A stretch of 23,896 bases of DNA from UHGV virus genome UHGV-0115697, one strand, 5' to 3'. The notes beneath the pieces were generated by a model. The model searched no databases. It was not told the DNA's origin and was given only the letters and a program-made list of their open reading frames with translations. The translations under genes were made by a program, and so were the position numbers. Shown piece after piece: positions 17,242-21,469 of the stretch (positions are counted from its first letter, which is position 1; every line of letters begins with the position of its first letter). This DNA is from a virus.

Positions 17242-17435
17242 TACTTAGCTCCTTCCTGCTTGCCTGTGTTTGATGTCGTTTCAGCAGCAGCCCCAGAGCA
17301 ATTAACGCTACCCGCAACACCATATCCATAACCAGTCTTGAAGAAATTGTTGCCAGTAAATTGGTTAACAATCTTCCCGCAGCACGGGCAGCGTTGGCAT
17401 TGGCAATAAGGGGATTGATTATTCCAGTGATACAT
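17241..17435 (-). CDS. Possible 64-aa Cys-rich small protein (CQCQRCPCCGK motif)
   Basis: ATG at 17435 with AGGAGA SD 6 nt upstream; track lists a longer 89-aa version starting inside the upstream gene. Confidence 0.35.
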   Translation of the reverse strand: MYHWNNQSPYCQCQRCPCCGKIVNQFTGNNFFKTGYGYGVAGSVNCSGAAAETTSNTGKQEGAK

Positions 17436-17808
17436 CTTGTTTCTCCTGAATGAATGGCAGGAAGTGATTAACCATCCTGTCCAGCATGTAACAGTACGTC
17501 TCGTTGGCATCTTCAGGCCTTGTCGTCACGCCGACATCAGAGCAAACGTAAAAGCAGACGTGGGCACACTCATGAACGAGCGTAGCGATCTGCTGATCGA
17601 ATACTCCAATCAGATAGCATCGCTCACCCGTATCAGTGTTTTCATAGTTGCTTGCAATCCCAAGATTGAATGGCTTCTCATCCCCGCTGCCGCCAAGGAA
17701 TTTATCAGCGTGCTGAAACTGTTCTCTGGTTGTTGCGAGGTAGACGTGTGCACTTTGAAACAGCGGAATGGTGAACGCCGGGAGTTTGTGCCATTTGTCC
17801 TTAGCCAT
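17419..17808 (-). CDS. Hypothetical 129-aa protein with HExxH motif (putative small zinc metallopeptidase-like)
   Basis: Motif LVHECAHVCFY; GGAG-type SD; adjacent to upstream 80-aa gene. Confidence 0.55.
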   Translation of the reverse strand: MAKDKWHKLPAFTIPLFQSAHVYLATTREQFQHADKFLGGSGDEKPFNLGIASNYENTDTGERCYLIGVFDQQIATLVHECAHVCFYVCSDVGVTTRPEDANETYCYMLDRMVNHFLPFIQEKQDVSLE

Positions 17809-17809
17809 A

Positions 17810-18052
17810 TCACACTCCAGCAGTGAACAGGTCTAACGCTTCCTTCGATTTACGCACCGCTTCGATAGTACGGGTCGTGATATCTGAATTAGCGCCGCCT
17901 GACTGGAAGTGAATTTTGAATAGCTCAAGCTTCAGCTCGTCAGTGCCAATGAATTGAAATGCTTCTTCTGCGGCTGCGTTCTGGTTCATGACCAGTTTGT
18001 AAATCTCTAACTGGAATTTCTGTTCTTCAGTCATGGGAATAATCTCTGCCAT
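17810..18052 (-). CDS. Hypothetical 80-aa acidic protein
   Basis: ATG at 18052 with GGAG-containing SD; ends one codon before the HExxH gene start; no homolog recognised. Confidence 0.5.
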   Translation of the reverse strand: MAEIIPMTEEQKFQLEIYKLVMNQNAAAEEAFQFIGTDELKLELFKIHFQSGGANSDITTRTIEAVRKSKEALDLFTAGV

Positions 18053-18155: not shown

Positions 18156-18536
18156 CTACTGTTCGCTTAGCTTCTGCTTCAGCAAGTAACCTTCGAGCAT
18201 CCAGATTTTGTTTACAGCATTCTGCCGGGCAATCTTCCGACCAATTTCTGCATCAAAGTTTTCCGGGCTTGCACAGGCACTCTCTCCGGTGACGGTGAAG
18301 CCATTCTTCAGCACCAGTACGCAGAAAGTGAGCAACTTCAATGGTGATAAATCACGATCGCCTTCTTCTGGTTTTTCCCTGCCACAATATTCGTTGCTGG
18401 AAATGGCACCATTTCGTCCATCATAAGCAGTAAAGTAATGCTCGCTTTTAATCACGTCTTCGATGTGCTGCAGGGTGATTCGCGGTGCCGTTTTGCCTTT
18501 CTCAACGATTTCTTTTTCGATTTGCTGGTCGTTCAT
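18156..18536 (-). CDS. Gp49 / Sf6 gene 66-family phage protein (function unknown)
   Basis: C-terminal LKNGFTVTGESACASPENFDAEIGRKIARQNAVNKIWMLEGYLL resembles the remembered Phage_gp49_66 family core; location after lysis genes as in Sf6-type genomes. Confidence 0.55.
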   Translation of the reverse strand: MNDQQIEKEIVEKGKTAPRITLQHIEDVIKSEHYFTAYDGRNGAISSNEYCGREKPEEGDRDLSPLKLLTFCVLVLKNGFTVTGESACASPENFDAEIGRKIARQNAVNKIWMLEGYLLKQKLSEQ

Positions 18537-18770
18537 AATTATGCCCCTGTGGAGTGGTTGCTTGATTAGGATGTCTTTCCATCAGTCCGCCACCACAAAG
18601 AATCTTTTTTGCCATAAGGCTGGAGGTTCATCTTTCAGTGGCTGCCAGTGTTATTTCCCCACTTTCTGGCTTGGGTTGCTTCGTGGTACTGCCGTTAACT
18701 GGTGACCTAGAATAAATTCCGGTTTCATTATCAAGCCCACCCGTAGATGGGCTTTGTAATGCCTACATGG

Positions 18771-19241
18771 TTAAATGATTTGCCAGTCTTCTGCTAGAAC
18801 ATCAGTCTGACTAGCCAGCCACGGTACTAATTTATCGTCCGCTGTCTTCATGCAAATGCATGGCAGCGTCACAAGGCCATTAACTCCGTCCAGGTCACAC
18901 TCAAACCCCCAAGCATTCTGCTGGATAATGAACAGATACATCCCCTTACCATTCCAGCCAGCACGGGCAACTTTATTCCCCAACTTGAGCGCTTCAATGG
19001 CAAGGCCGAAACTTAGCCCTGATACCGGACGATAAGCCTTTTCGAATACTTCTTTTGGACTCCAGCTAACGTAGCCATCAAAGCGATCGGTGTTAGGTTT
19101 TCCGCCATCAAGATATTCAACCAGATAGCCTTCATCCTCGCCGTTTTCTCCGGCAGGAAGCTGCCAGCCACGAAAATCGTTATATGCCTGTCTCGTCATC
19201 GGAAAGGCGTTAATCAGTTTTACGCCAATATGCTGGGTCAT
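18771..19241 (-). CDS. DUF2829-like protein (Tad2-type nucleotide-sponge fold candidate), 156 aa
   Basis: C-terminal half LSFGLAIEALKLGNKVARAGWNGKGMYLFI...CICMKTADDKLVPWLASQTDVLAEDWQII resembles remembered DUF2829 core; ATG at 19241 chosen because the longer track ORF would overlap Rz and the post-Rz terminator. Confidence 0.5.
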   Translation of the reverse strand: MTQHIGVKLINAFPMTRQAYNDFRGWQLPAGENGEDEGYLVEYLDGGKPNTDRFDGYVSWSPKEVFEKAYRPVSGLSFGLAIEALKLGNKVARAGWNGKGMYLFIIQQNAWGFECDLDGVNGLVTLPCICMKTADDKLVPWLASQTDVLAEDWQII

Positions 19242-19262
19242 AAAATTACCTATAGAGTTGGG

Positions 19263-19287
19263 AATAAAAAGCCCCGCATCGCGAGGC
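19263..19287 (-). terminator. Intrinsic terminator (minus strand) after the lysis cassette
   Basis: Minus-strand GCCUCGC-GAU-GCGGGGC hairpin (plus 19271-19287) followed by UUUUUAUU (plus 19263-19270); 35 nt after Rz stop. Confidence 0.55.
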
Positions 19288-19321
19288 TCATTAAATGGAC
19301 TTTGTGATTTGCAAAAAAAAA

Positions 19322-19789
19322 TTATTTCAGGCATTGCGTCCTGATGTATTCCTGCAGGTAGTTAACCTGCGCGGTTATCTTATCGATTCCACTTCGGAGA
19401 CGGTAATAATTGAGTTCAGCATCTGCTGTAAGTCTTGGGCTTTCTCCATCGCCCATGCCGCTGGCTCCGGTCGTTGACTTTGCACAGGTGGCGGCGACTT
19501 GCAGGCGCTTACGCCCAGCAGAAACATCAGCACGGAGGCTTTCGATAGTCGCGTTAGCATCAGCAAGCTCCTTTGTGTATCTGGCGTCAAGTTCTGCTAC
19601 ATCACGTTGACGCTTCTGCATGTCTTTAATGGTGGCGGTCGCCAGGAGGAGTTTCTCAGTGGCCTTATCGCGCTGGTCTCTGTAAGTGATGGCGTTGTCG
19701 CGGTAGTGGTTCACGAAGAAAGCCAGTGCGCCGATTAACGCCAGCACCAGCAACTGCAGCCAGTAACGCTTAACCAGTGCGCTAATCAT
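19322..19789 (-). CDS. Rz: Spanin inner-membrane subunit Rz (i-spanin)
   Basis: 155 aa; N-terminal TM segment then AVNHYRDNAITY..RDK...DMQ.RQRDVA.LDA.YTKELADA, closely matching lambda Rz; ATGA overlap with lysozyme stop. Confidence 0.9.
   Translation of the reverse strand: MISALVKRYWLQLLVLALIGALAFFVNHYRDNAITYRDQRDKATEKLLLATATIKDMQKRQRDVAELDARYTKELADANATIESLRADVSAGRKRLQVAATCAKSTTGASGMGDGESPRLTADAELNYYRLRSGIDKITAQVNYLQEYIRTQCLK
19375..19560 (-). CDS. Rz1: Spanin outer-membrane lipoprotein subunit Rz1 (o-spanin), embedded in +1 frame within Rz
   Basis: MLTRLSKASVLMFLLGVSAC with lipobox V-S-A-C and Cys at position 20, then Pro-rich KSPPPVQSQRPEPAAW; fully embedded in Rz as in lambda. Alternative start ATG at 19527. 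Confidence 0.8.
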   Translation of the reverse strand: MLTRLSKASVLMFLLGVSACKSPPPVQSQRPEPAAWAMEKAQDLQQMLNSIITVSEVESIR

Positions 19790-20650: not shown

Positions 20651-20675
20651 AAATAAAAAACCCGCTCAAGGCGGG
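20651..20675 (-). terminator. Intrinsic terminator (minus strand), tR'-like, downstream of the tRNAs and upstream of holin
   Basis: Minus-strand CCCGC-CUUGA-GCGGG hairpin (plus 20661-20675) followed by UUUUUUAUUU (plus 20651-20660). Confidence 0.6.
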
Positions 20676-20731: not shown

Positions 20732-20807
20732 TGGTGCCGGTTAACGGATTTGAACCGCTACCTATTCACTTACAAGGCGACCGCTCTACCATTGGAGCTA
20801 AACCAGC
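20732..20807 (-). tRNA. tRNA-Thr (anticodon UGU)
   Basis: 76-nt minus-strand cloverleaf GCTGGTT-TA-GCTC-CAATGGTA-GAGC-G-GTCGC-CTTGTAA-GTGAA-TAGGT-AGCGG-TTCAAAT-CCGTT-AACCGGC-A-CCA: 7/7 acceptor pairs (one G-U), 4-bp D stem, T loop TTCAAAT, encoded CCA; anticodon stem has one G.A and one G-U. Confidence 0.65.
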
Positions 20808-20812
20808 ATGTT

Positions 20813-20887
20813 TGGCGGGACAGCGTGGACTCGAACCACGATAAGAAGGTTAACAGCCTTCCGTAATGACCTTTATACGACTGACCC
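20813..20887 (-). tRNA. tRNA-Asn (anticodon GUU)
   Basis: 75-nt minus-strand cloverleaf; perfect anticodon stem GAAGG/CCTTC with loop CTGTTAA; T arm CGTGG-TTCGAGT-CCACG as in E. coli tRNA-Asn; discriminator G and encoded CCA; one U.U mismatch at acceptor 4-69; 5-nt spacer to tRNA-Thr. Confidence 0.65.
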
Positions 20888-20950
20888 AAATAAAAAAAGC
20901 CACCGTTGCAACTTAAGAGTCACTAACGGCAGCTTACCCTCTAATTATGG

Positions 20951-21469
20951 CTAAATGGCTAATTGCATGTCAAGGTTTTTAACAGCAACATGCTTAACTT
21001 TCTCAACACGTTTACGCATTTTGAAAGCATTTTGCATTGGTTGGTACAAAACAAATAATGACGCTTTCAGGATGTCGTCAATTTCATTTCTACAGGTTGC
21101 CAGTGAAGGTTTTCTCCATCCCTCGCCACCACGTCCACACATCTTGCGTGGCTTTGCAGTCGCGTGATAGTAGGATGCAATTGCTCGCTTAGATGAACCA
21201 TGAGCGTAGTAGCTGAGGAGGATGCCAAAGGCTTTCTTGTCAATGTACATGACGGAATCGACGACCTGAGAAATCAACATTCCATCGTCATCATTACACA
21301 TTGGCCTTGTCATAACTCTTCCCGGCTCTACGCTCTCCATGAACTTAACTATTACGCTGCTCATGCGCTTTTCCAGACGACCTGAATAAACCCATGCCCC
21401 CCACAGTTCAAGCCAGCCATTCAGCCAATCGTGCTGTTCTTTGGTGAGGTTTATTTCTCTTATGCTCAT
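20951..21469 (-). CDS. Q: Late-gene antiterminator Q (phage 82 / QuuD family)
   Basis: 172 aa; L.LWGAWVYS...SRPMCNDDDGMLI resembles remembered QuuD (..ERWGAWAA...SRPQCCDDDAMII); sits immediately upstream of the tRNA/lysis late leader. Confidence 0.7.
   Translation of the reverse strand: MSIREINLTKEQHDWLNGWLELWGAWVYSGRLEKRMSSVIVKFMESVEPGRVMTRPMCNDDDGMLISQVVDSVMYIDKKAFGILLSYYAHGSSKRAIASYYHATAKPRKMCGRGGEGWRKPSLATCRNEIDDILKASLFVLYQPMQNAFKMRKRVEKVKHVAVKNLDMQLAI

Follow-up and report, generated by a model that had tools for sequence, protein, structure and literature searches.

A minus-strand gene at positions 18771..19241 of the UHGV virus genome UHGV-0115697 most likely encodes a sponge for the TIR-made ADP-ribose signals of type I Thoeris, as judged from its homology and from a structural model. 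The gene lies in a window of 23,896 nucleotides (nt), by which is meant the whole stretch of DNA that was analysed, and its product of 156 amino acids (aa) is made up of two domains, an N-terminal module of 73 residues followed by a Tad2-like domain. We hold it to be highly probable that this is a two-domain anti-defence protein which carries a Tad2-type sponge for glycocyclic ADP-ribose (gcADPR) and is transcribed late, beside a gene of the Acb4 family. An earlier model-made annotation of the same DNA, here called the first-pass annotation, had noted that the C-terminal half resembles DUF2829, the family of Tad2, and had proposed a signal sponge on that ground. The family assignment has been borne out, and the candidate sponge reading, in which function is assigned by homology only, is supported by a profile match, by homology to solved Tad2 proteins, by the predicted fold and by a conserved pocket.

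The Tad2-like domain and its predicted pocket

The open reading frame (ORF) begins with an ATG at 19241 and ends with a stop codon at 18771-18773, and its translation is exactly the peptide that the first-pass annotation had quoted. The two-domain gene is complete, with phrog_872 aligned to the full length of the 156-aa protein (expectation value, E, 1.3e-68), and an AGG is found 8-10 nt 5' of the ATG. A public gene call for this gene (P0001) starts at an in-frame ATG at 19334 and gives a version of 187 aa, which was rejected; the 156-aa start is correct, because the longer version overlaps the stop codon of Rz and the hairpin that follows it and because the N-termini of homologues align at MTQHIGVK, i.e. 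at M1 of the 156-aa version.

Homologues are abundant, with at least 7,988 found at E<=1e-3 among the 8,000 candidates scored from a collection of 5.8 billion proteins. PF11195 is present in all of the best 120 of these, which are mostly ~150-175 aa long and cover 97-100% of the query, and in E. coli prophages the RefSeq name is 'DUF2829 domain-containing protein'. The assignment to the Tad2 family is correct but already known, there being thousands of homologues with the same architecture, and it adds one member to a well-studied sponge family. The gene itself was found at a query coverage of at least 80% in 8 of 5,426 complete genomes and partially in 45. Five P22-like phages (IME10, Huey, Louie, HZ41 and Kapi1) have near-identical DNA, and the source of the window is a P22-like (Lederbergvirus) temperate phage.

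The Tad2-like domain comprises residues 77-156 (18774..19013, minus strand) and is matched by PF11195 ('Tad2-like', formerly DUF2829) with an E of 9.3e-27 and a score of 93.8 bits, the gathering cut-off being 25 bits, over profile positions 2-73 of 73. Searches of Protein Data Bank (PDB) sequences with phmmer connected the protein to SPO1 Tad2 (8sme, 3.8e-17), Myroides MoTad2 (9eib, 4e-16), HgmTad2/AcrIIA7 (8kbi, 1e-14) and SptTad2 (8wjd, 6.5e-14). An AlphaFold2 monomer model of the 156-aa protein, for which 67 homologues were used as input, has a predicted local distance difference test (pLDDT) score of 88.5, and in a Foldseek comparison with 24 Tad2 chains it matched with a probability of 1.0, E values from 8e-8 to 4e-6 and target-normalised template modelling (TM) scores of 0.63-0.87. 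The profile and structure checks that had been suggested for this gene, namely PF11195, the sequence matches to solved Tad2 proteins and the superposition of the predicted fold, all came out positive.

The residues with which SPO1 Tad2 contacts 1''-3' gcADPR or ordered waters are W25, N26, I63, T65, D67, H71, W73, S76, T78 and D79 (bioRxiv 10.1101/2023.05.01.538930), and these map, in order, to W96, N97, M131, T133, D135, V139, W141, S144, T146 and D147 of the present protein. Eight of the ten contacts in the predicted gcADPR pocket are therefore identical (W96, N97, T133, D135, W141, S144, T146 and D147), with W96, N97, W141 and D147 invariant across the 67 homologues. At the two remaining positions I63 and H71 of SPO1 Tad2 are replaced by M131 and V139, and the same methionine and valine are present in Tad2_82 and Tad2_70, both of which inhibit type I Thoeris.

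The nearest experimentally tested relatives are Tad2_82, with 51% identity, and SPO1 Tad2, with 48% identity over the domain, and both are inhibitors of type I Thoeris. SPO1 Tad2 (Gp34.65; PDB 8SME/8SMF/8SMG and 8WJE) is the founding Thoeris anti-defence 2 sponge, and shares with the present protein not only PF11195, the predicted fold and the eight ligand contacts but also a likewise short insertion between strands beta2 and beta3 (21-24 aa in SPO1 Tad2). It is however a single domain of 89 aa, to which the present protein adds the 73-aa N-terminal module, and unlike SPO1 Tad2 the present gene belongs to a phage of a Gram-negative enterobacterium and is situated in a late operon. Tad2_82 (IMG/VR Ga0244015_10031327; Hadary et al., bioRxiv 10.1101/2025.08.24.671296) is alike both in the residues at the two variable pocket positions and in its short insertion, and it inhibits type I Thoeris in vivo, but this metagenomic protein consists of one domain of 80 aa, with another insertion sequence and no module.

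By analogy with SPO1 Tad2, residues 77-156 would form a homotetramer in which two inter-protomer pockets would enclose TIR-made 1''-3' gcADPR (3'cADPR), and with the signal sequestered in this way the Thoeris effector ThsA would not be switched on. A number of points weigh against the reading of the protein as a two-domain gcADPR sponge. The AlphaFold2 model has a predicted TM score (pTM) of 0.60, which makes the relative placement of the two domains uncertain. The ligands of Tad2 homologues differ and include 3'cADPR, His-ADPR, N7-cADPR, cUMP/cCMP and cyclic dinucleotides, and since specificity varies among them the exact ligand here can only be inferred. Some of the Tad2 homologues that have been tested inhibited nothing, and the 18 whose activity was assayed in bioRxiv 10.1101/2025.08.24.671296 all lack the module. 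Furthermore, the late expression of the gene, itself inferred from gene order alone, is unusual for an anti-defence gene, and the one experiment on a homologue of the module, described below, was negative.

The match to HgmTad2/AcrIIA7 (8kbi) could also be taken to mean that the protein is an AcrIIA7-type anti-CRISPR, and in Escherichia phage Huey 'anti-CRISPR protein' is the label given to the orthologue of the Tad2-type gene and to that of the Acb4-type gene alike (L001 382-762, 997-1497). The Huey record dates from 2025, and these labels probably derive from the name AcrIIA7, which is disputed. To our knowledge the CRISPR systems of E. coli are of type I and not of type II-A, which counts against such a role. 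Moreover Li et al. were unable to reproduce the inhibition of Cas9 by HgmTad2/AcrIIA7 or its homologues, whether in vitro or in vivo, and Yirmiya et al. make the case that the family acts against Thoeris and not against CRISPR. It would seem very improbable indeed that the gene encodes an anti-CRISPR of this type.

Within the Tad2-like domain the beta2-beta3 insertion (residues 105-127, 23 aa; 18861..18929, minus strand) is hypervariable. When the protein is compared with its close homologues, identity is 93-100% in the module and 79-97% in the Tad2 flanks of the insertion, with the insertion at 7-21%; across the 67 homologues the mean pairwise identity of the insertion is 16.7% versus 72-74% elsewhere, and its length ranges from 20 to 40 aa. 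Two more distant proteins (P0024 and P0028, 65% identical overall) share the present type of insertion at 52-61%. It is the same region that forms a second, cyclic-nucleotide pocket in HgmTad2, SptTad2 and MoTad2, and the presence of a hypervariable insertion at this point suggests a cassette-like exchange of second-site specificity. Such variation in otherwise near-identical proteins amounts to a natural experiment on how the specificity of the second pocket may evolve in Tad2.

HgmTad2 and SptTad2 (PDB 8KBI-8KBM, 8WJC and 8WJD) belong to the same family and have the conserved gcADPR pocket, but their pocket for c-di-GMP or cGAMP is built by, and requires, an insertion of 35-41 residues. SPO1 Tad2, with an insertion of 24, binds no cyclic nucleotides. 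The present insertion, at 23 residues, is shorter than the 35-41 that mark the cyclic-dinucleotide-binding subtype, and insertions of 35-40 residues are present in some close relatives. Because of this length a second pocket like that of HgmTad2 is not expected, and the protein is expected to be a gcADPR-type sponge without one. The first-pass annotation had looked more broadly, to CBASS, Pycsar and type III CRISPR systems as well as Thoeris, and for activity against these three no specific support was found, the second-pocket insertion being of the short type.

The N-terminal module and its fusion partners

The ~75-aa N-terminal extension that the first-pass annotation had left unassigned does exist, and Pfam gave no match to it even with the threshold relaxed to E<=5. 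It corresponds to a module of residues 1-73 (19023..19241, minus strand), delimited from a structural model and an alignment of homologues and predicted to be a small beta-barrel. The model of residues 1-73 has a pLDDT of 94.1 and the order beta-beta-alpha-beta-beta-alpha, with a short beta1 at residues 2-5, and the module has the signature PMxRxxYNxxRGWxLPxDExxxDEGYLVEYxDGGKxN....GYVSWSPKxVFExxY. It is small and acidic, with a net charge of about -3, and has ~17 conserved polar or aromatic positions, which include K8, R17, Y20, N21, R24, W26, E32, D36, Y43, Y57, S59, W60 and S61. A linker of ~3 residues joins it to the Tad2-like domain just before helix alpha1, the helix which in SPO1 Tad2 mediates tetramerisation. 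No Pfam or NCBIfam family matched the module even at lenient thresholds, its profile found no relative among PDB sequences, and there was no structural match between it and the solved sponge structures.

The module is restricted to phages, in which it is widespread. A phmmer search of 1.84 billion representatives gave 1,587 clusters at E<=1e-3, tblastn located it in 137 phage genomes of INPHARED, and it is encoded in at least 567 IMG/VR loci. The phages identified by tblastn include N4-like phages, crAssphage (gp41) and phages of Vibrio, Pseudomonas, Klebsiella, Acinetobacter and Clostridium, so that the module spans phages of Proteobacteria, Bacteroidota and Clostridium and is present in such model phages as N4, crAssphage and the P22-like Kapi1, IME10 and HZ41. 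In Escherichia phage N4 it is found in gp49 (ABK54417.1, EF056009), which is likewise built of the module and Tad2 and is 47% identical from end to end (E 7e-50). The module is related to the N-terminal parts of phrog_872, phrog_9467 and phrog_32732.

Its partners include several sponges. Among the 143 best representatives of the module Tad2 is also present in 52, Sequestin (PF21825) in 38 and Acb4 (PF13876) in 20, and local profile searches found two-domain proteins in the orders module-Tad2, module-Sequestin and module-Acb4 as well as three-domain proteins in the orders Acb4-module-Sequestin, module-Tad2-Sequestin and module-Sequestin-Acb4. Single cases were seen of fusion to a Tad1-like domain (P0356, 82-209) and to a domain like the RyR repeat (P0255, 74-192). 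The SWSPK motif of the module occurs 94 times in the Sequestin homologue table of Tal et al., whose screen for fusions queried Pfam families only and whose text does not mention the module; the lack of a Pfam model for the module and the confinement of the Sequestin screen to Pfam would explain how a family of anti-signalling domains had been missed.

Further fusions were observed. In one protein (P0359, 82-181) the module is joined to a WDGH domain, PF25311, and in another (P0270, 1-158) it is preceded by a helical region which is MazG-like by eye only. A recurrent domain with the motif DPDYAWGWHCNIAMAAFDAGCPH..ANEGAARF lies C-terminal to the module in three proteins (P0296, P0315 and P0342, ~73-150), and the same domain is found together with the module in Rhodoferax phage P26218 gp06 (L087:2501-3046). 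By the logic of fusion this domain is a further candidate anti-defence domain.

It was considered whether the module might itself be Lockin or Acb5, and this was rejected. The Lockin seed has no matches in the related loci, and the module is found in 137 INPHARED genomes, a collection from which Lockin, described as a hexameric cog, is absent. Two Lockin homologues in Table S4 of Tal et al. carry a divergent short form of the module, and by its sequence the module is to be regarded as a fusion partner of Lockin, not as Lockin. An anti-guard role for the module, directed against Panoptes or PanDA, was likewise thought unlikely, as N4 has the module in gp49 and is still restricted by PanDA via Acb4.

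Proteins of 73-80 aa which consist of the module alone also exist. In Erwinia phage phiEaP8 a stand-alone module of 78 aa (L085 2468-2704) is encoded directly before the virion RNA polymerase gene, in the position of N4 gp49, and no recognisable sponge gene was found within 2.5 kb of it. The sequence of the module does not depend on its partner: amongst the 143 representatives mean identity is 58% whether the proteins compared have the same architecture or different ones, and only 49 of the 143 have a nearest neighbour of their own architecture. It is also as conserved as the Tad2 core, with a mean pairwise identity of 73.5% versus 72.3% in the 67 homologues, a set which was chosen by whole-protein score and is unbiased for this comparison. 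A greater conservation of the module than of Tad2 (58.5% versus 32.6%) was seen in a set chosen by similarity to the module, which is hence biased, and it was discarded.

Two readings of what the module does are about equally likely, with no more than a slight preference for the first. The first, which we advance tentatively, is that it represents an unrecognised family of autonomous anti-signalling domains, acting either as a sponge for an immune signal not covered by current assays or through binding to some component of host immunity that is conserved, such that the 156-aa protein would be a dual-headed inhibitor able to neutralise two immune signals. This reading is favoured by the logic of fusion, by the stand-alone genes and by the pattern of conservation. 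Guilt by fusion was the logic that led to Sequestin, and the module is attached to Tad2, Sequestin and Acb4 in many orders, with the single Tad1-like and RyR-like cases, the Lockin homologues and the SWSPK occurrences pointing the same way. There are precedents, since Acb4-Tad2 of Pasteurella phage Pm86 joins two small domains in one polypeptide and blocks both Thoeris and CBASS, and the Acb4-Sequestin fusions of Pseudomonas phages YH6 and Ab09 (gp59) are likewise multi-sponge proteins active against two systems; the activity of the Pm86 protein also means that N-terminal fusions to Tad2 are tolerated. Both halves of those fusions are proven sponges, however, whereas the partner domain of the present protein has no known activity. 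The independence of the module from its partner, the spread across phages of three bacterial groups, the copy in phiEaP8 with no sponge gene nearby and the ~17 conserved polar or aromatic positions, which resemble a binding site, are all in keeping with an autonomous domain. Against it stand the acidity of the module, known sponge pockets being positively charged, and the lack of a structural match to any solved sponge.

A further difficulty for an autonomous role comes from gp68 of Pectobacterium phage vB_PatP_CB1, known as 'RyR Tad' (bioRxiv 10.64898/2026.06.04.730250), in which a homologue of the module is fused to a gcADPR sponge that is not Tad2 but an all-helical, dimeric domain resembling the RyR repeat. 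The N-terminal domain of gp68 is a divergent short variant without the RGW and DGGKPN motifs, and its relationship to the module is apparent in a profile comparison with hhalign (probability 97.5%, E 5e-12) and in a local jackhmmer search (E 1e-11). In the crystal this domain is a domain-swapped dimer in which each beta1 is taken up by the other subunit, and dimerisation is aided by both domains of gp68. When gp68_N (residues 1-86) was assayed alone it had no activity against type I Thoeris, and the RyR-like C-terminal domain was sufficient (bioRxiv 10.64898/2026.06.04.730250). This is the only experiment on a homologue of the module. There is also indirect evidence that the module is not one of Tad3-Tad8, the protein inhibitors that bind ThsB or ThsA (Yirmiya et al., Cell 2025): the same authors had mapped Tad3 in the hotspots of N4-like phages and yet labelled the gp68 N-terminal domain as of 'unknown function', and the module profile had no match in the PDB.

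The structure of gp68 and the lack of activity in the assay speak for the second reading, to which we give much the same tentative standing, namely that the module is a strand-swapped dimerisation accessory, or clamp, which would stabilise sponge oligomers with pockets at their interfaces and would have no ligand or target of its own. In gp68 the ligand pocket and all the activity measured reside in the C-terminal domain, and in the monomer model of the present module the short beta1 (residues 2-5) could be swapped in a like manner. All the partner families are homo-oligomers with two-fold axes, and in the present protein the linker of ~3 residues would place a clamp next to helix alpha1, the tetramerisation element. 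It is nonetheless the case that oligomers of Tad2, Acb4 and Sequestin form where the module is absent and that complete phage genomes retain stand-alone copies of it, and a clamp would not need to be conserved to the level of the ligand-binding core or to have so many invariant residues of polar and aromatic kinds.

Whichever reading holds, the module is a useful lead, being conserved to the level of the core, independent of its partner, joined to essentially every known sponge family and as yet unnamed. Were it an autonomous anti-signalling domain, the 156-aa protein, N4 gp49, crAssphage gp41 and more than 1,500 protein clusters would be two-target inhibitors, and if it is a binding domain this would point to a sponge fold not seen before, or else to an immune signal beyond the current panels. 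A role as a clamp would account for the way in which phages stabilise pockets that lie at interfaces.

Genomic context of the gene

The minus-strand gene order is that of the late region of a P22-like phage. RusA is followed by the Q antiterminator (20951..21469; PF06530, Phage_antitermQ, Pfam E 4.5e-25) and a PR'-like promoter with 11 of 12 matches (20973..20944); the genes for tRNA-Asn(GTT) and tRNA-Thr(TGT) (20887..20732) then lie between this promoter and a tR'-like terminator (20675..20661) which precedes the holin. The lysis cassette that the first-pass annotation had placed upstream of the gene was verified by Pfam in all its parts, holin (PF05106), endolysin (PF00959) and Rz (PF03245, stop codon at 19322), and is followed by a hairpin and the two-domain gene. 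Beyond these come the Acb4-family gene, a DUF2560 gene, an ORF with an HExxH motif, the gp3 small terminase, the large terminase, a P22-type portal and so on as far as the tailspike, all on the same strand.

A terminator-like hairpin with a T-run, found by a terminator scan and by RNA folding, does occupy the space between the Rz stop codon and the ATG (19259..19289, minus strand), as the first-pass annotation had noticed. Its stem (19289..19269) has 9 pairs, 6 of them G-C, and is followed by TTTTTATT; its folding energy is -15 kcal/mol, with a z of -2.6 versus shuffled sequences. The conclusion that had been drawn from it, that the gene is probably separately transcribed, is not supported. 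A promoter scan found no sigma-70-like site on the minus strand between Rz and the ATG, the gap before the ATG is ~18 nt from the T-run and ~27 nt from the stem, and the terminase, portal and tail genes are found downstream on the same strand. Because the terminase genes lie beyond the hairpin and the PR'-like promoter upstream of it, the hairpin must be read through in any case. The late genes of lambdoid and P22-like phages form one Q-dependent transcript which ignores terminators. Late expression by read-through within such an operon is more likely than separate transcription: RNA polymerase modified by Q would read past the post-Rz hairpin and the gene would be transcribed late, together with the adjacent Acb4-family sponge and with structural proteins, which often trigger signalling defences.

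Just 3' of the stop codon there is a second strong hairpin without a T-run (18733..18754, minus strand), with a folding energy of -20.6 kcal/mol and a z of -4.0, none of 200 shuffles being equally stable. The two hairpins bracket the gene in the manner of a moron cassette, and expression from the prophage is conceivable. This raises the alternative that the gene is a lysogenic-conversion moron, expressed by the prophage, which would buffer a second messenger or NAD-derived metabolite of the host and so alter its physiology or protect the lysogen. Moron cassettes are similarly placed between stable hairpins, the phage is temperate and is present as a prophage in E. coli chromosomes, and an affinity for c-di-GMP in the picomolar range is known from some members of the Tad2 family. 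The short insertion contrasts however with the 35-41 residues of the c-di-GMP binders, the same architecture is found in strictly lytic phages such as N4, and no promoter-like site was found between Rz and the ATG; we regard such a role as unlikely, and prefer an anti-Thoeris sponge transcribed from the late operon.

The Acb4-family gene (18156..18536, minus strand) encodes a protein of 126 aa which matches the full length of PF13876 ('N4 Gp49/Sf6 gene 66') with a Pfam E of 1.5e-34, and PF13876 is the family of the Acb4 sponges (bioRxiv 10.1101/2024.12.30.630793). It is 45% identical to N4 gp48, the Acb4 of N4 (E 1e-28), and matches the SPO1 Acb4 structure 9e4w with an E of 0.006. N4 Acb4 binds c-di-AMP at 111 nM and triggers the guard system PanDA (bioRxiv 10.64898/2026.08.10.743972). 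By homology the neighbour is a second candidate signal sponge, and because it adjoins the Tad2-type gene the locus is a putative two-gene anti-signalling island. Of 80 related IMG/VR loci, 19 have an Acb4 gene on the strand of the two-domain gene and no more than 3 kb from it, usually either 234-316 nt downstream, which is also the arrangement here, or 41 nt upstream.

P22-like temperate coliphages would thus carry, between their lysis and packaging genes, an island of the Tad2 and Acb4 types made up of the same pair as is found in N4. In N4 gp49 adjoins the Acb4-family gp48 just as the present two genes adjoin one another, but the order is reversed, with Acb4 first, and N4 is a lytic phage in which the two genes are part of the N4-like 'anti-signalling hotspot' beside the gene for the virion RNA polymerase and do not follow a lysis cassette. 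The naming of these proteins does not agree between sources, as PF13876 is called 'N4 Gp49/Sf6 gene 66' yet in EF056009 (L003 2109-2962) it is gp48 that is Acb4 and gp49 that has the module and Tad2. Annotations of the kind 'similar to gp49 N4' may thus denote either family.

Two small ORFs follow the Acb4-family gene on the minus strand, and for neither were there matches informative as to function. The first (17810..18052) encodes a DUF2560 protein of 80 aa (PF10834, Pfam E 1e-43). The second (17419..17808) encodes 129 aa, has no Pfam family and no PDB relative, and gave only a sub-threshold NCBIfam match to a model of the HExxH type; it is assigned to phrog_1365, contains the HExxH motif as HECAH, and belongs to the moron region that separates the Acb4-like gene from the small terminase gene.

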